Part shown: piece after piece, positions 31,205 through 53,169 of the stretch
Position numbering within the stretch: the stretch's first letter is position 1
Layout: every line of letters begins with the position of its first letter
Position numbers and translations under genes: made by a program
DNA from: Clostridia bacterium
GTDB lineage: Bacteria; Bacillota; Clostridia; UBA1381; UMGS1253
Assembly (NCBI GenBank): GCA_045537695.1
Contig: JAZSQB010000023.1
Location: 15,605 to 79,604 of the forward strand
Direction of reading: 5' to 3'
Length of the DNA stretch: 64,000 bases
Notes under the pieces: generated by a model
The model's database searches: none
What the model saw: only the letters and a program-made list of their open reading frames with translations
What the model was told of the DNA's origin: nothing

Positions 31205-31288
31205 GCGAGTGTGCTGGAATCGGCAGACAGGCACGTTTGAGGGGCGTGTGCTTATGGCGTATGGGTTCAAGTCCCATCACTCGCACCA
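31205..31288 (+). tRNA. tRNA-Leu (anticodon GAG), type II with long variable arm, CCA encoded
   Basis: Hand fold: acceptor GCGAGTG/CACTCGC, D region GGAATCGGCAGAC, anticodon stem CACGT/GCGTG with loop TTGAGGG, T arm ATGGG-TTCAAGT-CCCAT, discriminator A, then CCA. Confidence 0.9.
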
Positions 31289-41392: not shown

Positions 41393-41926
41393 TTAATAGT
41401 TTTTACCGAGCTCTAAAGCACCGACATTGACTTCAAGCATATCCGCACGCTTAGCGGATACAACCTTGCCAAGAGTAGCTCTGATAGAATTTTCATCATA
41501 CATGCCGAGTGTCTCTAAAAGCTTACCGGTCATAATCATATTTGCAAGAGTATCAATCTTGTTTTCAGAAGCAAGCTTTGTTGCCGGAATATAAACAACA
41601 TTTACATCCGTACGCTTTACCTTGCGTTCAATCAAAGAAGATTCAACAAAAATCGTACCGCCCGGTACAACAGTATCTTCATACTTATCTAAAGACGGCA
41701 GATTCATTGCAACTAATACATCCGGCTTAGAAACGATCGGAGAACCTACCGGCATATCGCTGATAATAACGCTACAGCTTGCAGTACCACCGCGCATTTC
41801 CGGACCGTAGGACGGAAGCCAGCTTACGTTTTTATCTTCCATAAGACCTTTATATGCCAGGAATTTACCGGAGAACAAGATACCCTGTCCGCCGAAACCG
41901 GCAATCAAAATCTGTGTAGTACTCAT
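41393..41926 (-). CDS. 2-oxoacid:ferredoxin oxidoreductase, gamma subunit
   Basis: [17 protein letters not shown]...SYGPEMRGG. Confidence 0.88.
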
Positions 41927-41943: not shown

Positions 41944-42699
41944 TTATTTCTCTTCGTTTGCCGCACTTCTGTCTTTGTATACACCAAGCGGATAGTACGG
42001 AATCATCTTTTCATCCACCCATTCGAGTGCCTTCTGCGGAGTCATACCCCAGTTGGTCGGACATGTGGAAACAACTTCGATTAGAGAAAAGCCCTTGTTG
42101 TTTAACTGATTTTCAAATGCCTTCTTAATGGCTTTCTTTGCTTTTCTAACGTTTGCAACATTGTTTACGGCAACTCTTTCAAGATATTCCGGACCGTCGA
42201 GCTTGGAAAGCATCTCGCAAACCTTTACCGGATAACCGCAAGCTTCAACATCACGGCCGTACGGCGAAGTCTGTGTTACCTGACCCGGCAAGGATGTCGG
42301 TGCCATCTGACCGCCTGTCATACCGTAAATTGCGTTGTTTATAAAGATAATTGTGATATTTTCATTTCTTGCTGCGGAATGTACAGTTTCAGCCATACCG
42401 ATGGAAGCGAGGTCACCGTCACCCTGGTATGTAAATACCACATGTTCTTCCGGATTTGCACGCTTCAAGCCGGTAGCAACCGCCGGTGCACGACCGTGCG
42501 CTGCTTCAACCATATCGCAGTTAAAATAGTTGTATGCCATTACGGAGCAGCCAACCGGTGCTACGCCGATTGTTCTACCCTCAATGCCTAATTCATCAAT
42601 AACTTCAGCAACCAAACGGTGCACAATGCCGTGGGTACAACCCGGGCAATAATGCAGAGGTACATCTGCCAAAGCTTCAGGTTTCTTAAATACTACCAT
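41944..42699 (-). CDS. 2-oxoacid:ferredoxin oxidoreductase, beta (TPP-binding) subunit
   Basis: YCPGCTHG, GDGDLASIG and NNAIYGMTGGQ TPP motifs. Confidence 0.9.
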   Translation of the reverse strand: MVVFKKPEALADVPLHYCPGCTHGIVHRLVAEVIDELGIEGRTIGVAPVGCSVMAYNYFNCDMVEAAHGRAPAVATGLKRANPEEHVVFTYQGDGDLASIGMAETVHSAARNENITIIFINNAIYGMTGGQMAPTSLPGQVTQTSPYGRDVEACGYPVKVCEMLSKLDGPEYLERVAVNNVANVRKAKKAIKKAFENQLNNKGFSLIEVVSTCPTNWGMTPQKALEWVDEKMIPYYPLGVYKDRSAANEEK

Positions 42700-43775
42700 T
42701 ATTTCGCACCTCCGTTTTCGCTAACTTCCTTAATTTTTGCCAATACCTGTTCCGGCGTAACAATCATGCCGCCGACTCTGTTGCAGAGGTGTACCGGCTT
42801 TTTAAACTGTGTTGCAATCTGAACATCTTCAATCATCTGGCCCATAGAAAGTTCAACCGAAATAAAGGATTTTACCTTATCAGCAGCTGCTAAAAGCGGC
42901 TTTTTCGGGAACGGCCAAAGTGTAATTGGGCGGATTAAACCAACCTTAATGCCCTGCTTTCTTGCTTCAACAATTGCATTTTTGGATACACGCGCTGCAA
43001 TACCGAAAGCAACGATGCAGTATTCAGCATCATCCATCATGTATTCTTCATACATAACTTCGTTTTCTTCGATCTGCTTATAACGCTCATATCTTGCAAT
43101 ATTGAGCTGTTCGAGTTCTTCTGGAACGAGAGAAAGCGAGTTGATAATGTTGTGTTTTCTGCCCTTCTTTGTACCGGTTACTGCCCACGGCTTTTCAATC
43201 GGATCGGACGGCTTGATATCCAAGGATACCGGCTCCATCATCTGACCCATAGTACCGTCAGCCAAAATCATTGCAGTCATACGGTACTTATCTGCTAAAT
43301 CAAAGCCCTTGACTGTCATATCCGCCATTTCCTGTACGGAAGCCGGCGCCAGAACGATCATACGGAAGTCACCGTGACCTGCGCCGCGTGTTGCCTGGAA
43401 ATAGTCAGACTGGGACGGCTGAATACCACCAAGTCCAGGACCGCCGCGCTGTACGTTAACAACTAAGGACGGCAAGTCAGAACCTGCCAGATACGAAAGA
43501 CCTTCAGCCTTTAAAGAAATACCCGGGCTGGAGGAAGAGGTCATAACACGCATACCGGTCGATGCTACACCGTATACCATGTTAATTGCAGCAACTTCAC
43601 TCTCTGCCTGTAAAAATGTACCGCCGATTTTCGGCATTCTCTTTGCCATGTAAGCAGCAATTTCTGTCTGCGGCGTAATCGGATAACCGAAATAAAAACG
43701 GCAACCCGCCATAATCGCAGCTTCTGCGATTGCTTCATTACCTTTCATCAATGCTTTATCTGCCATTTTGCTCAC
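42699..43775 (-). CDS. 2-oxoacid:ferredoxin oxidoreductase, alpha subunit (VorB/KorA-like)
   Basis: KGNEAIAEAAIMAGCRFYFGYPITPQTEI. Stop/start overlap with the beta subunit. Confidence 0.9.
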   Translation of the reverse strand: MSKMADKALMKGNEAIAEAAIMAGCRFYFGYPITPQTEIAAYMAKRMPKIGGTFLQAESEVAAINMVYGVASTGMRVMTSSSSPGISLKAEGLSYLAGSDLPSLVVNVQRGGPGLGGIQPSQSDYFQATRGAGHGDFRMIVLAPASVQEMADMTVKGFDLADKYRMTAMILADGTMGQMMEPVSLDIKPSDPIEKPWAVTGTKKGRKHNIINSLSLVPEELEQLNIARYERYKQIEENEVMYEEYMMDDAEYCIVAFGIAARVSKNAIVEARKQGIKVGLIRPITLWPFPKKPLLAAADKVKSFISVELSMGQMIEDVQIATQFKKPVHLCNRVGGMIVTPEQVLAKIKEVSENGGAK

Positions 43776-43982
43776 TCACCTTTCTACCGTAATAATGCAA
43801 TCCGGACACATAATTGCACAGGATGCACAGCCTACACAGGCATCCATGTTCACCGCTTCAACCGGATGATGTCCTTTTGCGTTGATTTTGTCTTTAGAAA
43901 TCGCCAAAACCTCTTTCGGGCAAGCGTTTACACAAAGTCCGCAGCCCTTACAAAGATCAGTTCTGAAACTTAATTTTGCCAT
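43776..43982 (-). CDS. 2-oxoacid:ferredoxin oxidoreductase, delta subunit (2x[4Fe-4S] ferredoxin)
   Basis: 68 aa with [12 protein letters not shown] and [12 protein letters not shown]. Confidence 0.85.
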
Positions 43983-44011: not shown

Positions 44012-44680
44012 TTAAATAATTTTATCTTGTAAATCCAGTGCAAATAGATTGTCAATCTTGTCTGCAAGTGCATCATAGAGCGATGCTTTTACGGTTGTCA
44101 ATTTTACCGGAATACCGCACACTTTAGAAATTTCTTCTACAAAAGGTATGGATTCAAGCACCTGCTCCGGCGTTGTTTCCTCCCCTAAATTTGAATTGTT
44201 AATGATTGCCGTAAAAGGTATCTTTGAAGCCGTTTCAATCTCACGAATAACCTCTAACATGTCCTCTAAATTTCTTGTAAGCGGTCGGTATGCATTAACA
44301 ACCAAAAACATTTCATAGTTGTTTTCTTCTTTAATTGCATCCGAAAGTCTGCCGAGTGCAAGTGCGCCGCGATCATCACCGCCAATGTCTACAATCGCAT
44401 AGCAATCACGTTTTTCTATTATGCGATACATTTCCTGCGGCAGCGCCGGAATGTCTACATTGGAATTTGCATACGGTGAACAAATCAGCTCTATTCCCGC
44501 TGCATCTAATTCTTTTTGACTGTCTTTTGTGCGGAAGTACGGGTTGACAATATCAATATCGGCAATCAATACATCCTCACCCCTGCGCTTTAAATCAAAT
44601 GCAAGATTCACGGCGATATTGGTTTTGCCACTGCCGTAATGTCCCGACAAAAGAAGTACACGCTTATCTGACATTGTCAT
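44012..44680 (-). CDS. MinD/ParA/CooC-like P-loop ATPase
   Basis: Deviant Walker [14 protein letters not shown] and Walker B IADID. 222 aa, lying 6 nt after the synthetase stop. Confidence 0.7.
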
Positions 44681-44686
44681 CCCCCA

Positions 44687-46993
44687 TTAAAGCTTATTTC
44701 TCTGAATCTTACCGCTGACGGTCTTCGGCAGACTGTCGCGGAATACAACAATTCGCGGATACTTATACGGCGCTGTTCTTTCCTTGACATAATTCTGAAT
44801 TTCTTTCTTCAGCTCATCCGTGCCTTCTTTGCCGTTTACAAGCACGATGCTTGCTTTGACAACCTGACCTCTTACCTCGTCCGGTTCAGCAGATACACCA
44901 CATTCCAGCACGTACGGAAGCTCCATAATAACACTTTCAATTTCAAATGGTCCGATGCGGTAGCCGGAGGACTTAATAACGTCATCCACGCGACCTACGT
45001 ACCAGTAGAAACCGTCTTCATCCATCCATGCAGTATCACCGGTATGGTAATAGCCGTCATGCATAACTTCTGCAGTTTTCTCTGCATCGCCGTGATAGCC
45101 GACAAATAGACCGCAAGGCATGCCGTCCTCAATACGGATTACAATCTCGCCTGTTTCGCCGACAGCAACATCGTTGCCTTCTGCATCAACTAACTTTACA
45201 TCATATATCGGACTCGGTTTACCCATGGAACCGATTTTGTGGTCAGCACCGTAAAGGTTGCCGATAATCATTGTGCTTTCACTCTGACCGAAGCCTTCCA
45301 GAATCTGAAGACCCGTTACCTTCTCAAATTGGCGGTAAACCTCCGGATTGAGCGCCTCGCCTGCTGTTGTCATATGTTCTACTGAGGATAAATCGTATTT
45401 AGAAATATCCTGCTTTATAAGCATACGCAGCATTGTCGGCGGTGCGCAGAAGGTTGTAATGTGATGCTTTGCAAACATCGGCAGGATTTCTGCCGCGTCA
45501 AAGCGGTCAAAGTCGTACACAAACGTTGCGGCTTCGCAGAGCCATTGGCCGTAGAGTTTACCCCACATGGACTTCGCCCAGCCGGTATCGGAAATGGTAA
45601 AGTGTAATCCTTCCGGATTTACACAATGCCAGTACTTCGCTGTATGGAAATGACCGAGCGGATATTTGTAGTTATGCGCCGCAAGTTTCGGGTAACCGGA
45701 TGTGCCGGATGTGAAGAACATCAGCATCAAATCATCACCACAAGGTGCATCTTCGGCTCTCTCAAAGTGCGTACTATACATCATATATTCATCGTTAAAA
45801 TCTCTCCAGCCGTCACGCACGCCGCCAACTATAATTTTGTTGACGAGCTGAGGACACTTATCAGCAACTAAATCAATCTGATGCGCAGTGTCACCATCTG
45901 CAGTACAAATAACCGTTTTGATGTTCGCTGCATTAAATCTGTACTCAAAATCATGCTCCTGCAGCTGATTTGTTGCCGGAATTGCAATTGCACCGAGCTT
46001 GTTAAGTGCCATCATCGCAAACCAGAACTGATAGTGACGCTTGAGTACAAGCATTACGGTATCGCCACGTTTGATACCGATAGCTTTAAAGTAGTTCGCG
46101 CATCTGTTCGACGCTTTACTGATATCAGAAAAGGTAAATCTTCTCTCTGTCTTTTCCCTGTCAATATGCAACATCGCAAGCTTATCCGGCTTTGTTCTAG
46201 CAAGCTCATCTACAACATCGAAAGCAAAGTTGAACTTCTCTGTGTTTTTAAATGTAATGGAAGTAGGTGTACCGGCTTCGTTTTTTACAACATCTACATA
46301 CTTGTTATATACGCGTTTTGTTTTGCGGATTTCCGGGTTTTCCATCGAAGCGGACTTCTTATGCGTTTCCGGCTCTTTCTTCGGCTGGAGTTCCGGAATC
46401 GGCTCCCCTGTCGGGTTAAGTACAATCGCGTAGAACAAGCAATCCTGACCGTCTACGGCAATCATACCGTGCGGCGTGGAAGAATCGTAGTATATGCTGT
46501 CTCCCGGGCCTAAGACAACGCTGTGGCTGCCTACTTGAACCTTTAAATGTCCCTGGATAATAATATCGCATTCCTGACCGTTATGGGTTGTCAGTTCAAT
46601 ATCACGTCTCTCTGCCTCCGGGTCATACTCGCTCTTTACATAAAGCGGCTCGGCAATTCTGTTTTTAAATGCAGATGCTAAATTGTAGTATACCATGCCG
46701 TGTGCCTGCTCAATCTTCTGACCGCCGCCGGCACGTGTTACCGTATAAGATTTCAGTTTTGGGCTGGAACCTTCAATAATATCGGTGACATCGACATTAA
46801 ATGCTAGCGCGCAACGGTAAATAAAAGCAAAGTTTAAATCGCTTTCCCCATTTTCACAGCGCAGATATTCTTCGACAGAAACATCCGTCTTTTGTGCCAT
46901 ATCATCGACAGATAAGCCAATAATTTCGCGCAGCTCGCGGATTCTGCCTGCCATTTCTTTAATTTTGAAGTCAAGTCCTGTAATTTGTTTCAT
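44687..46993 (-). CDS. fusion protein: XRE-type HTH + cupin + AMP-forming acyl-CoA synthetase (paralog 1)
   Basis: 768 aa from MKQITG (AGGAGG RBS). HTH RIRELREIIGLSVDDMAQKTDVSVEEYLRCENG. Cupin region HNGQECDIIIQGHLKVQVG...PHGM. ANL motifs FTSGTSGYPK, GFGQSE, YHTGD, GRVDDVIKSSGYRIGPFEIE and PKTVSGKIQR. Confidence 0.88.
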   Translation of the reverse strand: MKQITGLDFKIKEMAGRIRELREIIGLSVDDMAQKTDVSVEEYLRCENGESDLNFAFIYRCALAFNVDVTDIIEGSSPKLKSYTVTRAGGGQKIEQAHGMVYYNLASAFKNRIAEPLYVKSEYDPEAERRDIELTTHNGQECDIIIQGHLKVQVGSHSVVLGPGDSIYYDSSTPHGMIAVDGQDCLFYAIVLNPTGEPIPELQPKKEPETHKKSASMENPEIRKTKRVYNKYVDVVKNEAGTPTSITFKNTEKFNFAFDVVDELARTKPDKLAMLHIDREKTERRFTFSDISKASNRCANYFKAIGIKRGDTVMLVLKRHYQFWFAMMALNKLGAIAIPATNQLQEHDFEYRFNAANIKTVICTADGDTAHQIDLVADKCPQLVNKIIVGGVRDGWRDFNDEYMMYSTHFERAEDAPCGDDLMLMFFTSGTSGYPKLAAHNYKYPLGHFHTAKYWHCVNPEGLHFTISDTGWAKSMWGKLYGQWLCEAATFVYDFDRFDAAEILPMFAKHHITTFCAPPTMLRMLIKQDISKYDLSSVEHMTTAGEALNPEVYRQFEKVTGLQILEGFGQSESTMIIGNLYGADHKIGSMGKPSPIYDVKLVDAEGNDVAVGETGEIVIRIEDGMPCGLFVGYHGDAEKTAEVMHDGYYHTGDTAWMDEDGFYWYVGRVDDVIKSSGYRIGPFEIESVIMELPYVLECGVSAEPDEVRGQVVKASIVLVNGKEGTDELKKEIQNYVKERTAPYKYPRIVVFRDSLPKTVSGKIQRNKL

Positions 46994-47036
46994 GATTTGC
47001 CTCCTGTTTGGGGGTATTTCTTTTAGGAACGTTACA

Positions 47037-47320
47037 TAAAAATCGCCCGTCCCAAGCTGATTGAACTTGGGACGAGCGTTGCATATACTGCCTACCCGCG
47101 GTACCACCCAAATTGCAACGCAAATTTGCGTTACCACTCATCGGAATCTAACAATTCCTGCGCCATTACGTTGCGCTGACGGGAAGGTTCTACTTGCATG
47201 CGCTTTCTTCCTTCCAGCTCTGAAGCTACAGCCATTCAAGTCGGATTTCGACGGCTCGCACCAAACGCCGCTTCTCTGAGTCTTCCTTCTTGACGCACTC
47301 TTCGTCAATGCCTTTATTTA
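47037..47320 (-). promoter_or_regulatory. T-box riboswitch leader 1 (controls 44687-46993 and downstream operon)
   Basis: Minus strand shows Stem I with GACGAAG, an AGAGA bulge, a distal GGUGCGA loop and an AGUAGA box. The T-box 5'-AAUUUGGGUGGUACCGCG-3' lies at plus 47097-47114. The terminator CGUCCCAAG-N9-CUUGGGACG plus U-run lies right before the RBS. Confidence 0.9.
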
Positions 47321-47323
47321 AAC

Positions 47324-47352
47324 ATTATAGTACATTCTATGTTGAAAGTCAA
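47324..47352 (-). promoter_or_regulatory. promoter of T-box leader 1 (TTGACT-17-TATAAT)
   Basis: Hexamers on the minus strand with a 17-nt spacer, 35 nt after the stop of paralog 2. Confidence 0.7.
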
Positions 47353-47387
47353 CTGTTTTTTTGCGAATTTAAGCCATTTTTCGCATT

Positions 47388-49658
47388 TTAGAGTTTGTTT
47401 CTCTGAATCTTACCGCTAATGGTTTTCGGTAATTCATCGCGGAATACAACAATACGCGGATATTTGTACGGTGCCGTTCTTTCCTTAACATAATTTTGAA
47501 TTTCTTTCTTAAGCTCATCCGTGCCTTCTGTACCCTTCGTAAGCACGATGCTCGCTTTTACAACCTGACCTCTTACTTCGTCAGGCTCAGCAGATACGCC
47601 ACATTCAAGCACATACGGAAGCTCCATAATAACACTCTCGATTTCAAAAGGTCCAATGCGGTAGCCGGAAGACTTAATTACGTCATCCACACGACCAACA
47701 TACCAGTAGAAGCCGTCTTCATCCTTCCAAGCGGTGTCACCGGTGTGATAATAACCATCGTGCCACGCTTCGTTGGTCTTTTCTTCGTTCAGATAATAGC
47801 CACTGAACAGACCGCACGGTACATTTTCGCTTGTCTTAATAACAATTTCTCCTGTTTCACCAACGCCCGCCGGTGTGCCATCCGGCAATTGAATGTCTAC
47901 ATCGTACATCGGACTCGGTTTACCCATCGAGCCAAGCTTATGTTTGTTACCGCGCAAATTCGCGATAACGAGTGTTGTTTCTGTCTGTCCGAAGCCTTCG
48001 CGGATACGCAGACCAGTTGCTTTTTCAAATGCTCTGTATACTTCCGGATTGAGTGCTTCGCCCGCAGTTGTCATACGCTTGATGGAAGACAGATCGTAGT
48101 TGGAAATATCCTGTTTAACAAGCATGCGCAGCATAGTAGGCGGCGCACAAAATGTTGTAATCTGATACTTTGCAAACATTGGCAGGATGTCAGATGCATC
48201 AAAGCGGTCAAAGTCATACGTAAACACTGCCCCTTCACAAAGCCACTGTCCGTAGAACTTACCCCAAAGCGCTTTCCCCCAACCCGTGTCGGAGATAGTA
48301 AAGTGAATACCATCTCTGTATACGCCGTGCCAGTATTTTGCCGTAATAAAATGACCGAGCGCATAACGGTAGCTCTGTGTCGCAATTTTGGGATAACCAG
48401 TTGTACCGGAAGTGAAAAACATAATCATCGGGTCTGTGCCGCACGGTGTATCTTCACTTCTTTCAAATTTACCGGTAAACAGACTGTAGTTTTCATCAAA
48501 ATCGTGCCAGTCCTCTCGGTTGCCACCTACCAAAATCTTGGTTTTCAGCGTCGGACTTTTCCGTTGCGCGCTATCCACCTGCTCAGCCGTATTTCCGTCA
48601 GCCGTACACAAAATCGCACTCACGCCTGCGGCGTTAAAACGATATTCAAAATCGTGCTCCTGCAGCTGATTGGTCGCCGGAATTGCAATTGCACCAAGTT
48701 TATGCAAACCAAGCATCGCAAACCAGAACTGGTAATGACGTTTGAGCACAACCATCACTCTGTCGCCTTTTTTGATGCCAAGTGATTTAAAGTAGTTTGC
48801 ACACTGGGCAGAGGCACGTTTCATATCTTTAAAAGTAAATCTTCTTTCGGTTTTATTTACATCCAGATGCAGCATCGCAAGCTTGTCAGGATATTTATCC
48901 GCAATTTCATCCACAACGTCGAACGCAAAATTAAATTTATCATCGTCTGTAAAGTCAATCGATTTAAGCGCACCGTTTTCTTCTTCAGTTGTATGGATGA
49001 ACTTCTCACAAATCAAAGCCTCGGATTTACCGGCAGAAACTACGCTGTCACGAATAATATCTTCTGATGTTTCTTCACCGGATACAACTACGGCTAAAAA
49101 GAGACAGTCTTTGCCATCCACGGCAATCATACCATGCGGAATGGAGCTATTGTAGAAGATACTATCACCTTCATGCAGAATTTCAGTATTTTCACCAATC
49201 TGCACCTTGAGGCTGCCTGAAATAATTAAGTCAAACTCCTGACCGCTGTGTGTTGTCAGATGTATCGGACGGTTCTGCTGATCAGCGTTGTATTCATAGA
49301 GCACCGAATACGGCTCTGCGAGCTTATTTTTAAAGCGCGGTGCCAGGTTTTTAATATCAATGCCGTCTTCTTTCGCCGTCTGCTGACCATGGTCTTTTCT
49401 TGTAATTGTATACGAAGACAGAAAAGTTGCGCTTTGACCTTCCAGAATATCAGACATTCCGACATCGAATACCAATGCACACTTATGAATAAAGCTGAAC
49501 GGAAAATCAATCTCGCCCGCTTCATAGCGCAGATATTCGCCAACACTGACTTCTGTCTTCCGTGCTGTTTCTTCAATACTTAAACCGGCAATTTCGCGAG
49601 CTTCACGAATTCTGCCTGCGATTTCAAACAGCTTTGTTTTTGTTGTGGATGTTTCCAT
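47388..49658 (-). CDS. fusion protein: XRE-type HTH + cupin + AMP-forming acyl-CoA synthetase (paralog 2)
   Basis: 756 aa from METSTTK (gggagg RBS). Same three-domain layout, with FTSGTTGYPK, GFGQTE, YHTGD, GRVDDVIKSSGYRIGPFEIE and PKTISGKIQR. Confidence 0.88.
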   Translation of the reverse strand: METSTTKTKLFEIAGRIREAREIAGLSIEETARKTEVSVGEYLRYEAGEIDFPFSFIHKCALVFDVGMSDILEGQSATFLSSYTITRKDHGQQTAKEDGIDIKNLAPRFKNKLAEPYSVLYEYNADQQNRPIHLTTHSGQEFDLIISGSLKVQIGENTEILHEGDSIFYNSSIPHGMIAVDGKDCLFLAVVVSGEETSEDIIRDSVVSAGKSEALICEKFIHTTEEENGALKSIDFTDDDKFNFAFDVVDEIADKYPDKLAMLHLDVNKTERRFTFKDMKRASAQCANYFKSLGIKKGDRVMVVLKRHYQFWFAMLGLHKLGAIAIPATNQLQEHDFEYRFNAAGVSAILCTADGNTAEQVDSAQRKSPTLKTKILVGGNREDWHDFDENYSLFTGKFERSEDTPCGTDPMIMFFTSGTTGYPKIATQSYRYALGHFITAKYWHGVYRDGIHFTISDTGWGKALWGKFYGQWLCEGAVFTYDFDRFDASDILPMFAKYQITTFCAPPTMLRMLVKQDISNYDLSSIKRMTTAGEALNPEVYRAFEKATGLRIREGFGQTETTLVIANLRGNKHKLGSMGKPSPMYDVDIQLPDGTPAGVGETGEIVIKTSENVPCGLFSGYYLNEEKTNEAWHDGYYHTGDTAWKDEDGFYWYVGRVDDVIKSSGYRIGPFEIESVIMELPYVLECGVSAEPDEVRGQVVKASIVLTKGTEGTDELKKEIQNYVKERTAPYKYPRIVVFRDELPKTISGKIQRNKL

Positions 49659-49717: not shown

Positions 49718-49975
49718 AAAAAAACCGTCTCAAAGTTTTCTTTGAGACGGGTGAAATTTCACTCGCGGTACCACTCAAATTGCAGTTAAACTGCCACTCG
49801 TCGGAATCTATCAATTCCTGTGCACTGACGTAGCATACACGGGAAACGTCTACTCGCTTTCACTTTCGGGTTTCCGGCTCAGAAGGGATAGGTATTTGAA
49901 AAGTTTGTCATTGACTCGCACCAACCGTCAACTCTCTGGAGACGCTACAGTTCAACCGTCTTCGTCACAGCCTAT
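49718..49975 (-). promoter_or_regulatory. T-box riboswitch leader 2 (controls 47388-49658)
   Basis: Minus strand shows GACGAAG, AGAGA, a GGUGCGA distal loop and AGUAGA. The T-box 5'-AAUUUGAGUGGUACCGCG-3' lies at plus 49764-49781. The terminator is CCGUCUCAAAG-AAAA-CUUUGAGACGG plus U7. Confidence 0.9.
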
Positions 49976-49981
49976 GAATGT

Positions 49982-50010
49982 ATAATACACCCAAAAAGCA
50001 GTTTTGTCAA
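49982..50010 (-). promoter_or_regulatory. promoter of T-box leader 2 (TTGACA-17-TATTAT)
   Basis: Hexamers on the minus strand with a 17-nt spacer. Confidence 0.65.
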
Positions 50011-50030
50011 GATTTTTTATATAAAAAATG

Positions 50031-50065
50031 CAAAAAATGTCCCGATACATGCGGTATCGGGACAT
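50031..50065 (-). terminator. terminator of the oxaloacetate decarboxylase operon
   Basis: Perfect 12-bp stem ATGTCCCGATAC-N5-GTATCGGGACAT followed on the minus strand by UUUUUG. Confidence 0.85.
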
Positions 50066-50069
50066 TAAA

Positions 50070-51515
50070 TTATTTAATCGGGTAATCTTTGGAGTCCATG
50101 TCGATATATTCAACATCAAATGCAGCTTTTGCCGGTGCTGCTTCAGCAGCCGGTGCGCTCTGCTCAACCTTCGGCGCCTTTCTGTGCTCAAAGTACTTCA
50201 TGGCAACCGGGCCGAACAGTGCATAGGACAATACATCCTCGTCCTGCTCTACGTAATCCTTGATTTCTTCTCTGAGCTTGTCAATTTCCGGCTCGAGTTT
50301 ATCTGCCGGACGGCAGGTAATTCTTTCTTCATCACCGATAACCTTCTTTACGATTTCATCGCTGATCGGAACCGGCGTCTGACCGTACTCACCGCGCACA
50401 ATACCTTTTGTTTCCTTGGTGATCATCTTATAACGCTCACCCATCAAAACGTTAAGCACTGCCTGTGTGCCGACAATCTGGCTCGACGGTGTAACGAGCG
50501 GCGGGAAACCTAAATCTTCACGCACGCGCGGTACTTCCTTGAGTACGTCCATAAACTTTCCTTCCTGACCCTGCTGCTTGAGCTGGGATACGAGGTTCGA
50601 GAGCATACCGCCCGGCACCTGGTAACGCAGTGTGTTAACATCCACACCCATAACCTTCGGGTCCATAAGACCACTCTTAAGGTATTCTTCACGAAGCGGT
50701 CTGAAGTAGTCTGCAATCTCACTTAAGAGGTCAAGATCAAGGCCTGTGTCATACTCTGTACCCTGCAATGCAGCAACCATCGGCTCTGTAGCCGGCTGGG
50801 ATGTACCAAGTGCGAGCGGAGACATAGCACAGTCGATTACGTCTATACCTGCTTCAATTGCCTTTAAGTAGGTCATCGAAGCCTCACCGCTTGTGTAGTG
50901 TGTATGCAGCTGAATCGGAATTTTAATTTCTTCCTTCATCGCTTTTACAAGGTCATATGCAGTATACGGAAGCAAAAGTGCAGCCATATCCTTGATGCAA
51001 ATGGAGTCCGCACCCATTTCTTCCAGCTGCTTTGCGAGCTTTACGAAAGACTCAATGTTGTGCACCGGGCTGATGGTGTAACATACAGTTGCCTGTACGT
51101 GTGCTTTTGCCTGATTGGCAGCTTTGATTGCCGCCTCCAGGTTTCTTGGGTCATTAAGTGCGTCGAAGATACGTAAGATATCAATACCATTATCTACGGA
51201 TTTCTTAACGAAGTAATCTACAACATCATCTGCATAATGTCTGTAACCGAGAATATTCTGACCGCGGAACAGCATCTGCAATTTCGTATTCTTAGCCTTA
51301 TCCTTAATCTTTCTTAAACGCTCCCATGGGTCTTCGTTTAAGAAGCGCAGGCAGGAGTCAAATGTAGCACCGCCCCATGCCTCTAAGGAATGATAGCCAA
51401 CTTTATCTAATTTTTCAACAATCGGAAGCATTTCTTCCGTTGTCATACGCGTAGCAATCAAAGACTGATGCGCGTCTCTTAATATGGTTTCAGTAATTTT
51501 AACCGGTTTTGCCAT
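50070..51515 (-). CDS. oadA: oxaloacetate decarboxylase alpha subunit, carboxyltransferase part only (no biotinyl domain)
   Basis: ITETILRDAHQSL...HTHYTSG. HMGL-like TIM barrel plus the PYC_OADA region. Ends without an AMKM biotin motif. Confidence 0.88.
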   Translation of the reverse strand: MAKPVKITETILRDAHQSLIATRMTTEEMLPIVEKLDKVGYHSLEAWGGATFDSCLRFLNEDPWERLRKIKDKAKNTKLQMLFRGQNILGYRHYADDVVDYFVKKSVDNGIDILRIFDALNDPRNLEAAIKAANQAKAHVQATVCYTISPVHNIESFVKLAKQLEEMGADSICIKDMAALLLPYTAYDLVKAMKEEIKIPIQLHTHYTSGEASMTYLKAIEAGIDVIDCAMSPLALGTSQPATEPMVAALQGTEYDTGLDLDLLSEIADYFRPLREEYLKSGLMDPKVMGVDVNTLRYQVPGGMLSNLVSQLKQQGQEGKFMDVLKEVPRVREDLGFPPLVTPSSQIVGTQAVLNVLMGERYKMITKETKGIVRGEYGQTPVPISDEIVKKVIGDEERITCRPADKLEPEIDKLREEIKDYVEQDEDVLSYALFGPVAMKYFEHRKAPKVEQSAPAAEAAPAKAAFDVEYIDMDSKDYPIK

Positions 51516-51553
51516 ATTTAGTTACCTCCCCTATATTTAAATTAACAGCCGAA

Positions 51554-52738
51554 CTACTTAAGCATCGACAGGAATACGCCAGCTGCTACCGCAGAACCAA
51601 TAACACCAGCAACATTCGGACCCATAGCGTGCATCAAAAGAAAGTTCTTTGGATTTGCTTCTTGACCAACCTTTTGCGATACACGCGCTGCCATCGGTAC
51701 AGCTGATACACCAGCAGAACCGATAAGCGGATTTATTTTTCCCTTTGTCAGGAAGCACATCAGCTTACCCAACAATAAGCCGCCTGCAGTCGAGAACGCA
51801 AACGCAACAATACCAAGACCAATAATCATCAAGGTCTGCGGTCTTAAGAACGCATCCGCTGTTGCAGTTGCGCCAACCGTTGTGCCAAGAAAAATTGTGA
51901 TAATGTTCATCAATTCATTCTGTGCAGTCTTGCTGATTCTGTCTGTTACGCCACATTCTTTTGCAAGATTACCAAGCATTAACATACCAACTAGCGGAAT
52001 TGCATCCGGTACAATCAAACCAACAACTACAGTTACTGCAATCGGGAAAATGATTTTTTCCGTCTTGGAAACTGGACGAAGCTGCTCCATCACAATCATA
52101 CGCTCTTTCTTTGTGGTCATCAGCTTCATAATCGGCTTCTGAATAACTTCAATCAGTGCCATATAGGAATAAGCCGCAATCGCAATTGCAGAAAGCAAAT
52201 GCGGTGCCAAAGTCTTTGTAATATAAATCGCTGTCGGACCGTCCGCACCACCAATAATACCGATAGAGCCTGCCTCTTGCGGTGTAAAGCCAAGCAGAAG
52301 TGCTGCTGCAAAGGTGAAGAACACACCAAACTGAGCAGCTGCACCCAAAAGAATGCTCTTTGGATTTGCAATCAGCGGACCGAAGTCAGTCATCGCACCG
52401 ACACCCAAGAAAATAAGCGGCGGATAAATACCGAGCTTAACACCTAGGTACAAAAGGTCTAAAAGACCGCCTTCTTTTAATACTTTGCCATAATCAATCG
52501 TTTCGCCTGTATACCAATCCGGATGCATAATGTCCGCTGCCTGTGGCAGATTCGCCAAAAGCATACCAAACGCAATCGGCAAAAGCAGTAGCGGTTCAAA
52601 TTTTTTAGCAATCGCAAGATAAATTAAAACAAAAGCAATCAGGAGCATTGCAATTGTTTTTACGCCGTCAACCCAACCGTTTGCAAACAGCAGGTTGAAA
52701 CCGGTCGTCGCCATAAATTCAGCGAGAAACTGTTGCAT
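51554..52738 (-). CDS. oadB: Na+-transporting decarboxylase beta subunit
   Basis: 394 aa, polytopic, with the OadB/GcdB/MmdB pattern ([14 protein letters not shown]...[10 protein letters not shown]...). Confidence 0.9.
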
Positions 52739-52770
52739 TGTATATCACTCACCTCTAAAGTCATATAATA

Positions 52771-53127
52771 TTAGCCAATTGTTACGAGAACATCGCCTGT
52801 ATTTACAGTGGATCCCTTTGTTGTGTTTACAGCGGAAATTGTGCCATCACACGGAGCAAGAATTTCGTTTTCCATCTTCATAGCTTCAAGAATAACGAGA
52901 ACTTCACCAGACTTCACACTCTGTCCTGCAGAAACCTTAATATCCAAAATGTTACCCGGCATCGGCGCTGTTACCGCATTTGCACCAGCCGGCACAGCCG
53001 TCGGAACCGGTGCCGCAGCCGGTGCTTCTGTCTTTGCTGCAGAGATAGGTGCGTTTGTTACGCCAGTAGCTTCTTCTACTTCTACGTTATAAACATTACC
53101 GTTTACTTTTACTACAAAATTCTTCAT
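52771..53127 (-). CDS. biotin carboxyl-carrier subunit of the decarboxylase
   Basis: Ala/Pro linker and LEAMKMENEI biotinylation motif. GGAGG RBS before MKNFVVK. Confidence 0.85.
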   Translation of the reverse strand: MKNFVVKVNGNVYNVEVEEATGVTNAPISAAKTEAPAAAPVPTAVPAGANAVTAPMPGNILDIKVSAGQSVKSGEVLVILEAMKMENEILAPCDGTISAVNTTKGSTVNTGDVLVTIG

Positions 53128-53169
53128 TTTTCTTTCCTCCAAATCTCCAATAAAACTTTAAATTTTCCC

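Follow-up and report, generated by a model that had tools for sequence, protein, structure and literature searches.

An XRE-type helix-turn-helix and cupin module fused to Macs-type acyl-CoA synthetases in Clostridia: a possible protein-level partner of the enzyme

A classic nutritional trait of rumen and gut anaerobes, and likewise of methanogens, is that they salvage isobutyrate and 2-methylbutyrate to make valine and isoleucine; how this is controlled is, to our knowledge, essentially unstudied. The role of branched acids as precursors for amino-acid synthesis has been summarised elsewhere (PMC10658910), and the synthetase Macs of Methanosarcina acetivorans has 2-methylbutyrate as its preferred substrate and is catalytically active in vitro without a helix-turn-helix (HTH)-cupin partner (PMC10455477). 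An all-alpha domain and a cupin domain are joined in the homotetrameric enzyme HppE (PMC9088020), in which His138, Glu142 and His180 are the iron ligands (PMC7916636). Here we describe a tandem of two genes, ACS-B and ACS-A, in a stretch of 64,000 nucleotides (nt) from a Clostridia bacterium (contig JAZSQB010000023.1, positions 15,605 to 79,604; hereafter the window), each of which encodes an acyl-CoA synthetase (ACS) with its own N-terminal XRE-type HTH domain and cupin barrel. The original prediction for these proteins was that they could be trigger enzymes analogous to BirA, binding DNA through the HTH, with an allosteric feedback role of the cupin as its fallback. We regard it as about an even call that the HTH-cupin module acts at the protein level, as a sensor or oligomerisation module of the synthetase, rather than as a DNA-binding repressor.

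Both proteins contain the complete set of domains that had been read from the sequence, as matches to Pfam models confirm: HTH_3 (E = 4.5e-6 in ACS-A and 2.8e-6 in ACS-B; 27 bits against a cutoff of 23), Cupin_2 (E about 1e-10 to 5e-11), AMP-binding (E = 5e-61 and 2e-63) and AMP-binding_C (E about 1e-20 to 1e-21); the two peptides quoted in the original prediction both belong to ACS-A. All of the core motifs of ANL enzymes that we sought, namely A3 (T/S-S-G-T-T/S-G-x-P-K), A7 (Y-x-T-G-D), A8 (G-R-x-D-D-x-I-K) and the A10 lysine, are present, and both proteins show FFTSGT(T/S)GYPK, YHTGD, GRVDDVIKSSGYRIG and PKT(I/V)SGK. Aligned along their whole length, N-terminal module included, the paralogs share 66% identity. 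A version of ACS-A with an open reading frame (ORF) of 816 amino acids (aa), beginning with GTG at 47137, was rejected as the start, as it extends into the T-box leader of the gene. The genes and their domains are as follows, with minus-strand features marked (-).

47388..49658 (-): ACS-B gene, 756 aa, start METSTT; HTH-cupin module and Macs-type acyl-CoA synthetase
49440..49631 (-): ACS-B XRE-type five-helix domain, residues 10-73, Pfam HTH_3/HTH_31; helix 3 is residues 39-46
49074..49403 (-): ACS-B cupin barrel, residues 86-195, Pfam Cupin_2
49248-49250, 49236-49238 and 49134-49136 (-): codons of the ACS-B cupin triad, H137, E141 and H175, respectively
48954..49073 (-): ACS-B inter-domain linker, residues 196-235, ~40 aa, poorly conserved, with a mean pairwise identity of 0.38-0.40 compared to about 0.7 in the domains on either side
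47391..48953 (-): ACS-B adenylate-forming enzyme half, residues 236-756, AMP-binding and AMP-binding_C
44687..46990 (-): ACS-A gene, 767 aa, start MKQITG after a GGAGG ribosome-binding site
46769-46963 (-): ACS-A HTH
46409-46738 (-): ACS-A cupin, triad H136/E140/H174
44690-46252 (-): ACS-A enzyme half

The fusion of these domains is real and not an artefact of assembly or annotation, a concern that the original prediction had itself raised. A search with ACS-B returned hundreds of homologs of ~755 aa with the same Pfam domain string on independent contigs, and when genomes were scanned at one per species, relatives turned up in at least 598 of them, from which the best 80 loci were analysed in detail. 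The fused form is present in all 80 of these best loci, mostly in metagenome-assembled genomes (MAGs) of gut or rumen Clostridia, and in about 49 of them the tandem of a B-type followed by an A-type gene is kept, with both paralogs retaining their own module. In three MAG contigs (L021, L058 and L075), frameshifts or stops split the A-type copy into at least two ORFs, and these breaks may reflect assembly errors or pseudogenes. Crude neighbour-joining trees place the fused forms in at least two to three clades, and the fusion therefore seems to have arisen more than once. Our literature searches for an HTH-cupin/synthetase fusion or gene pair found no paper describing either.

The origin of the module is apparent from its free-standing relatives. 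When the N-terminal 229 aa were used as the query, we found, besides the fusions, a large family of free-standing proteins of ~183-196 aa with 33-54% identity, encoded in Firmicutes, Spirochaetes, Deltaproteobacteria, Methanolobus and Methanobacteriales. We looked up six of their loci, widely spread in phylogeny (Ligaoa, Methanolobus, a deltaproteobacterium, an Oscillospiraceae MAG, Methanobacteriales and a spirochaete), and all six have a co-oriented AMP-binding gene of ~555 aa directly downstream, with gaps of ~3-29 nt; in Methanolobus this downstream synthetase is the Macs ortholog. Genes for ferredoxin (Fd) and 2-oxoacid:ferredoxin oxidoreductase (OFOR) follow the pair in three of the six (Methanolobus, Methanobacteriales and Deltaproteobacteria) and precede it in the spirochaete, and in one of the six the next gene is that for valyl-tRNA synthetase. 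If the looked-up loci are pooled with the metagenomic ones and only free-standing genes with sufficient sequence downstream are counted, a same-strand ACS gene comes next in 59 of 67, with a median gap of ~14 nt and many overlapping stop and start codons; the eight exceptions adjoin ABC exporters, flavin adenine dinucleotide (FAD) oxidoreductases or proBA, or represent a frame artefact inside a fused gene. Because free-standing genes adjoin synthetases in archaea and many bacteria, the window proteins are best described as fusions of an ancient gene pair. Two loci (L091 and L149) each have one operon with the gene order OFOR, HTH-cupin, ACS, HTH-cupin, ACS, and since each synthetase has its own HTH-cupin even within one operon, an operon-level regulator is disfavoured. 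One Oscillospiraceae contig (L087, 5278-7944) carries a split HTH-cupin and ACS pair followed directly by valyl-tRNA synthetase, a neighbour that links the module with the supply of amino acids in another way.

An AlphaFold2 (AF2) model of the N-terminal module of ACS-B has five helices (residues 3-23, 28-34, 39-46, 54-63 and 68-73; H1 to H5) and a cupin barrel, with a predicted local distance difference test (pLDDT) score of 89. A Foldseek search of the PDB gives as its best two-domain matches 1y9q, a “regulator” from structural genomics that is uncharacterised, and the metal-cupin enzymes HppE/Psf4, HEPD and MPnS (E about 1e-13 to 1e-14). The family profile matches HppE at E = 3.1e-10 over residues 8-182, spanning both domains, and 1y9q at 6e-11, and the family residues H137, E141 and H175 align column for column with the HppE iron ligands H138, E142 and H180. 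These three residues are invariant in 118 family members, and G139, Q140 and D165 inside the barrel are also invariant across archaea and bacteria. The helical domain of HppE is acidic, with a charge of -4 overall and -3 on helix 3, and we know of no DNA role for it. The premise of the original prediction that HTH plus cupin is the architecture of small-molecule-sensing transcription factors thus holds for the XRE-cupin regulators and is incomplete as a generalisation, as the same fold occurs in the enzymes HppE, HEPD and MPnS; in HppE, the architecture has a well-studied precedent that is not a regulator.

Conservation within the module was compared among orthologs. Module identity is 60-73%, similar to that of the catalytic domain, against 38-40% for the linker, so that the N-terminal module evolves under purifying selection. 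Conservation is strongest in H4/H5, the segment of residues 76-120 and the cupin, a misplaced pattern for a DNA reader. The positions of helix 3 (H3) that are, by homology, the base-contacting residues of 434-type repressors (39-41, 43, 44 and 47) form an outward face that is about as variable as the linker, and its consensus is hydrophobic or acidic (S-E-E-E-Y in A-type and V-E-E-Y in free-standing proteins). The per-position entropies are:

H3 outward positions (39-41, 43, 44, 47): 2.66 bits in B-type, 1.77 bits in A-type
Inter-domain linker: 2.07 bits in B-type, 1.87 bits in A-type
H3 core positions: 0.36 bits in B-type, 0.00 bits in A-type
H4: 0.53 bits in B-type, 0.43 bits in A-type
Cupin: 0.76 bits in B-type, 0.86 bits in A-type

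The HTH is also acidic, with a mean net charge of -4.9 in A-type, -5.7 in B-type and -5.4 in 119 free-standing proteins, and about -2 to -3 on helix 3, whereas the solved XRE-cupin protein 1y9q has charges of +3 (HTH) and +1 (helix 3). Searches for an operator were negative at each level. The two promoters of the window, which the original prediction had proposed to search for shared palindromes, have none in common, and 80 anchored orthologous promoters have no conserved dyad other than a low-complexity T5-N1-4-A5, the information in them being limited to the -35, the TG and the -10. Upstream of 58 split operons we likewise saw no shared dyad, the best inverted-repeat arm having a mean of 7.45 matched bases compared to 6.85 in shuffled sequence. 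Inverted repeats of 6 base pairs (bp) numbered 48 against ~30, and the excess is largely made up of A/T runs and terminators. The dyad T5-6 N1-4 A5-6 lies just upstream of the -35 (50012-50029 in the window, and in 10-14 of 80 B-type promoters per spacing); it sits at the position of an UP element or terminator tail, and we take it to be probably a terminator tail together with an A-tract UP element and less probably a binding site. Three loci (L030, L055 and L064) have a weak -35 (TTGCAA or TTGAAA) and repeated ATTACA-N3-TGTAAT palindromes ~45 nt upstream of the B-type -35. These palindromes occur in those loci only and look like sites for some other regulator.

We consider it unlikely, in view of these results, that the proteins are trigger enzymes with a dimeric, DNA-binding HTH, which would detect substrate, acyl-AMP or end product through the cupin or the enzyme and repress or activate their own operon or other amino-acid genes, in addition to control by the T-box. 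The acidic HTH has Glu/Asp or hydrophobic residues where 434-type repressors read bases, and those positions vary as much as the linker although promoter layouts are nearly identical. Neither the window nor about 140 related upstream regions yielded a palindrome in common. For control of a whole operon there would be little point in alternating two regulators with two enzymes inside it, and the gene is itself gated by a T-box. There are nonetheless several observations that fit DNA binding. Those XRE-cupin proteins that have been studied act as dimers and repress adjacent metabolic genes locally (PMC7901475), and enzyme-regulator precedents include the acyl-CoA ligase FadD1 (PMC12754631). In some genomes the split pair is divergent from the P-loop ATPase-Fd-OFOR genes over ~125 bp, a classic operator location. 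Furthermore, a divergent fused homolog (P0162, 758 aa, from a 50%-identity library) has a degenerate P-loop (QSYSYGMAKP for TSGTTGYPK) and is without the A10 lysine (NGV for SGK), yet it retains the HTH-cupin, with a more canonical helix 3 (ITSQEYQ). This protein may belong to a catalytically dead sensor or regulator lineage, and the loss of catalytic motifs alongside a kept HTH-cupin with TSQEYQ in helix 3 is how an enzyme turned regulator would be expected to look.

Other points weigh against a protein-level role more generally. The HTH matches true XRE repressors in sequence (PezA, DdrOC and the 434 repressor, at E = 1e-4 to 1e-6), and its HTH_3 score is above the Pfam threshold. Established XRE-cupin regulators adjoin their target genes and are horizontally transferred along with them, so a repressor is compatible with tight linkage (PMC7901475). 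Acidity failed as a discriminator, as family members linked and unlinked to an ACS gene are equally acidic, and the helix 3 positions that face outward were identified from homology rather than on coordinates. The operator searches have limited power, since operators can be short and lineage-specific. The full-length AF2 model is too poor for docking (mean pLDDT 62 and predicted template modelling score 0.43, with shallow alignments for the enzyme half), and the co-divergence of partner and enzyme (mirror-tree r = 0.82) was not used as evidence of contact, as shared ancestry may suffice. Metal binding, the identity of the ligand, allostery, an effect on oligomerisation or catalysis, and the absence of DNA binding are all things that we infer. 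On balance, the sequence evidence makes DNA binding by the HTH less likely, and the BirA-like trigger enzyme of the original prediction is weakly supported, given the acidic HTH, the variable outward face of helix 3 and the searches that returned no shared palindrome or operator. The trigger enzyme is less likely than the fallback, the cupin as an allosteric feedback sensor, which is close to what the evidence favours.

Each of the two genes has its own near-consensus sigma-70 promoter, in a layout shared by about 80 orthologous promoters, followed by a T-box leader. The layering of T-box control over both genes, which the original prediction regarded as unusual in combination with a sensing module, is real, as both leaders match Rfam RF00230 over the full model length with E of about 1e-18. 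Both score below the Rfam gathering score of 93 and were hence missed by a default scan, and both contain stem I with a specifier loop, the conserved T-box sequence UGGUACCGCG and a terminator/antiterminator. The promoter elements were read from the sequence.

49982..50010 (-): ACS-B promoter, -35 TTGACA (50005-50010) and extended -10 TGTATTAT (49982-49989)
49740..49977 (-): ACS-B T-box leader, RF00230, 84.5 bits, E = 3.8e-18, full model length
49887-49889 (-): ACS-B T-box specifier AUC (Ile)
49718..49750 (-): ACS-B T-box terminator hairpin and U-run, CCGTCTCAAAG...CTTTGAGACGG TTTTTTT, within or adjoining the Rfam alignment
47324..47352 (-): ACS-A promoter, -35 TTGACT (47347-47352) and -10 TATAAT (47324-47329)
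47065..47317 (-): ACS-A T-box leader, RF00230, 85.2 bits, E = 2.5e-18, full model length
47227-47229 (-): ACS-A T-box specifier GUA (Val)
47038..47075 (-): ACS-A T-box terminator hairpin and U-run, CGTCCCAAG...CTTGGGACG ... TTTTT

The T-box core motif is found upstream of 118 of the 123 fused orthologs with enough upstream sequence. Among orthologs with a parsable specifier loop, the B-type specifier AUC is invariant, with a variable base before it, and the A-type specifier is GUA (GUC in L004 and L009) followed by a purine, except for one misparsed row (L056). An alternative reading of the A-type specifier as Cys (UGU) was ruled out by L004 and L009, in which the triplet is GUC followed by A, so that Val is kept and Cys plus purine is lost. 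The free-standing HTH-cupin gene of Ligaoa also lies behind a T-box (96.8 bits, above the gathering score), and some 20 other split loci have AUC (Ile) as their specifier; in Firmicutes with this arrangement the free-standing protein would therefore be made only together with the enzyme, when the tRNA is uncharged. A tRNA-Leu(GAG) gene at 31205-31288 was also absent from the default scan, even though it scores above the gathering score, and was found by a sensitive scan and ARAGORN.

The enzyme half of ACS-B matches Macs of M. acetivorans (PDB 3ETC) at E = 2e-181 and 607 bits, and it is 52% identical to the Methanolobus Macs ortholog, which itself scores 935 bits to 3ETC. The best NCBIfam model for the enzyme is MbcS, a branched-chain enzyme of S. 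aureus, at 430 bits against an equivalog cutoff of 850, which is not reached; on sequence, ACS-A and ACS-B are members of the Macs/MbcS clade and not MbcS equivalogs. Because of the Ile and Val T-box specifiers, the substrate preference of Macs and the OFOR operon, we predict that ACS-B acts on 2-methylbutyrate (Ile branch) and ACS-A on isobutyrate (Val branch). The predicted pathway would run from branched acid to acyl-CoA, then by reductive carboxylation to the 2-oxo acid and by transamination to Ile or Val, with this direction of flux as presumed as the substrates. The only two fixed differences between A- and B-type proteins in the enzyme half are ACS-B Gly461 (~48276-48278) and Gly476 (~48231-48233), both Ala in ACS-A; they are candidate determinants of acyl-pocket size, because the larger residues sit in the enzyme for the smaller acid. 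A second N-extended adenylate-forming enzyme of ~815-845 aa, which consists of a xylose-isomerase-like TIM barrel (AP_endonuc_2), AMP-binding and AMP-binding_C, lies near the B-type gene in L007 (4372-6825) and ~25 other related loci (e.g., L005, L016, L020, L027 and L030) and is absent from the window.

Downstream of ACS-A, the operon continues with an ATPase and the subunits of an oxidoreductase, after which comes an amidohydrolase gene on the same strand.

44012..44680 (-): P-loop CbiA/MinD-like ATPase, Pfam CbiA; next operon gene after ACS-A
43776-43982 (-): 4Fe-4S ferredoxin subunit; downstream of the P-loop ATPase
42699-43775 (-): 2-oxoacid:ferredoxin oxidoreductase alpha, Pfam POR_N/PFOR_II
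41944-42699 (-): 2-oxoacid:ferredoxin oxidoreductase beta, Pfam TPP_enzyme_C
41393-41926 (-): 2-oxoacid:ferredoxin oxidoreductase gamma, Pfam POR

The P-loop ATPase, a possible factor in Fe-S maturation or assembly of the oxidoreductase, accompanies the Fd and OFOR genes in six other, unrelated loci (L117, L130, L132, L140, L159 and L167), sometimes divergent from the HTH-cupin and ACS genes. Upstream of ACS-B (50070-53142) are the alpha, beta and biotin-carrier subunits of a Na+-translocating decarboxylase of the oxaloacetate/methylmalonyl-CoA type, with no evident link to the synthetases, and a strong terminator hairpin (50036-50066) closes this cluster. The DNA comes from a spore-forming Firmicute of ~42% GC, to which Acutalibacteraceae and Christensenellaceae MAGs are the closest relatives.

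What is observed is the architecture, the T-boxes with their specifiers, the origin as a gene pair, the pairing of one module with each synthetase, the conserved triad and a helix 3 that is both acidic and variable; these would fit together as follows. Through their own T-boxes, ACS-B would be transcribed only when tRNA-Ile is uncharged and ACS-A only when tRNA-Val is uncharged, and the two enzymes would supply 2-methylbutyryl-CoA and isobutyryl-CoA to the co-transcribed OFOR, which would reductively carboxylate them to the keto-acids of Ile and Val. The HTH-cupin would be a dedicated partner of the synthetase, as a subunit in split systems and as a domain in the window proteins, and its role would be accessory or regulatory, because Macs is catalytically active without a partner (PMC10455477). 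The XRE-fold helical domain could provide a protein-protein surface for oligomerisation or docking, like the alpha/beta module of HppE, while the cupin may bind a divalent metal through His137, Glu141 and His175. A pathway metabolite bearing a carboxylate, most plausibly the 2-oxo acid or the amino-acid end product, could then bind at the metal and tune or stop the ATP-costly activation, adding a fast post-translational layer beneath the slower control by the T-box. The fixed differences between A- and B-type proteins are concentrated in H4/H5 and in residues 76-120, where they reach 15.6 per 100 aa, and the cupin core has none, a pattern that fits a module specialised by branch. In its full form, in which the HTH-cupin is an unrecognised class of regulatory subunit or domain for adenylate-forming enzymes, kept all the way from methanogens to gut Clostridia, with the XRE fold as its interface, and Ile/Val or their keto-acids bind the metal-cupin and switch off the synthetase, we offer this proposal tentatively, as rather more likely wrong than right, and we have less confidence in any particular ligand than in the protein-level role as a whole.

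Many of the same observations would also be expected if the module were passive, that is, if the HTH-cupin only oligomerised the synthetase or docked it onto the oxidoreductase or the P-loop protein, channelling acyl-CoA without sensing any ligand. One-to-one pairing and repeated fusion suit such a role, as do the conserved surfaces of H4/H5, the use of the helical domain of HppE in a homotetramer (PMC9088020) and the frequent co-occurrence with Fd and OFOR, and the paralog-specific substitutions in residues 76-120 could serve to keep A and B unmixed. It is the invariant His/Glu/His triad, together with G139, Q140 and D165, that argues for a bound metal or ligand over a scaffold, and several pairs are without an adjacent OFOR, so we judge a purely architectural module to be improbable, slightly more so than a trigger enzyme. 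That the cupin is a metal-dependent second catalytic centre acting on the acid, acyl-CoA or keto-acid (by epimerisation, proofreading hydrolysis or an unrecognised step) is a poor prospect despite its full-length profile and fold similarity to HppE, Psf4, HEPD and MPnS and its identical three metal ligands, as the established route from acid through acyl-CoA and 2-oxo acid to amino acid requires no extra step, the hosts are mostly strict anaerobes, which makes oxidative chemistry of the HppE type unlikely, epimerisation would have no stereocentre to act on in the Val branch, HppE shares only about 17% identity with the module, and Macs completes the reaction alone (PMC10455477).

The entry enzyme of branched-acid salvage is thus nearly always accompanied by an uncharacterised HTH-cupin, the Macs clade included, either as a neighbouring gene or as a fused domain in at least 80 species-level genomes, mostly Clostridia MAGs. 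If the module is allosteric or serves oligomerisation, this would represent a new control mode for ANL enzymes and a second layer under the T-box, and many proteins annotated as “XRE family transcriptional regulator” would not bind DNA, a warning for automatic annotation. If the HTH does bind DNA, the proteins would be a new trigger enzyme.

Among known systems, Macs and MbcS are close homologs of the enzyme half of ACS-A and ACS-B, and the Macs ortholog of Methanolobus has a free-standing HTH-cupin directly upstream, whereas the characterised Macs and MbcS are stand-alone proteins for which no partner or N-terminal module has been described. HppE, HEPD and MPnS share with the family an XRE-like all-helical domain joined to a cupin barrel and the same placement of the His/Glu/His triad, but identity to HppE is low, and the reaction of HppE, an enzyme of aerobic actinomycetes, is an oxidation of phosphonates. 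We saw no phosphonate genes among the ACS, Fd, OFOR and P-loop ATPase neighbours, and with hosts that are mostly anaerobes we do not claim HppE-like chemistry for the family.

The XRE-cupin factors PauR, PsdR, ErfA and PuuR (PMC7901475) have the same two Pfam domains in the same order and also adjoin metabolic genes. These factors bind palindromes as dimers, and none were found for the ACS-linked family, which further differs from them in having an acidic, variable helix 3, in being encoded first in the operon and translationally coupled to the enzyme, in being duplicated one-to-one with it and fused to it more than once, and in lying behind a T-box. The PuuR model scores the module at 16-18 bits against a cutoff of 211, and we found no curated family model for the HTH-cupin module. 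For the combination of adenylate formation with transcription regulation, the precedents are BirA and FadD1 of P. aeruginosa, an acyl-CoA ligase of the same superfamily that is reported to bind DNA via a leucine-zipper motif within the enzyme and not through an appended HTH-cupin (PMC12754631). BirA differs from ACS-A and ACS-B in its catalytic fold, its winged HTH and the use of its own adenylate to drive dimerisation. ACT-domain proteins are encoded beside PaaK-like arylacetate-CoA ligases in indolepyruvate:ferredoxin oxidoreductase operons, and they follow the same logic, with a CoA ligase that starts a reductive-carboxylation salvage and a small ligand-binding protein, although the fold differs and the comparison is a lead only. 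What is new compared to all of these is an ANL enzyme with a dedicated XRE-cupin partner, an arrangement that is real, widespread and uncharacterised.

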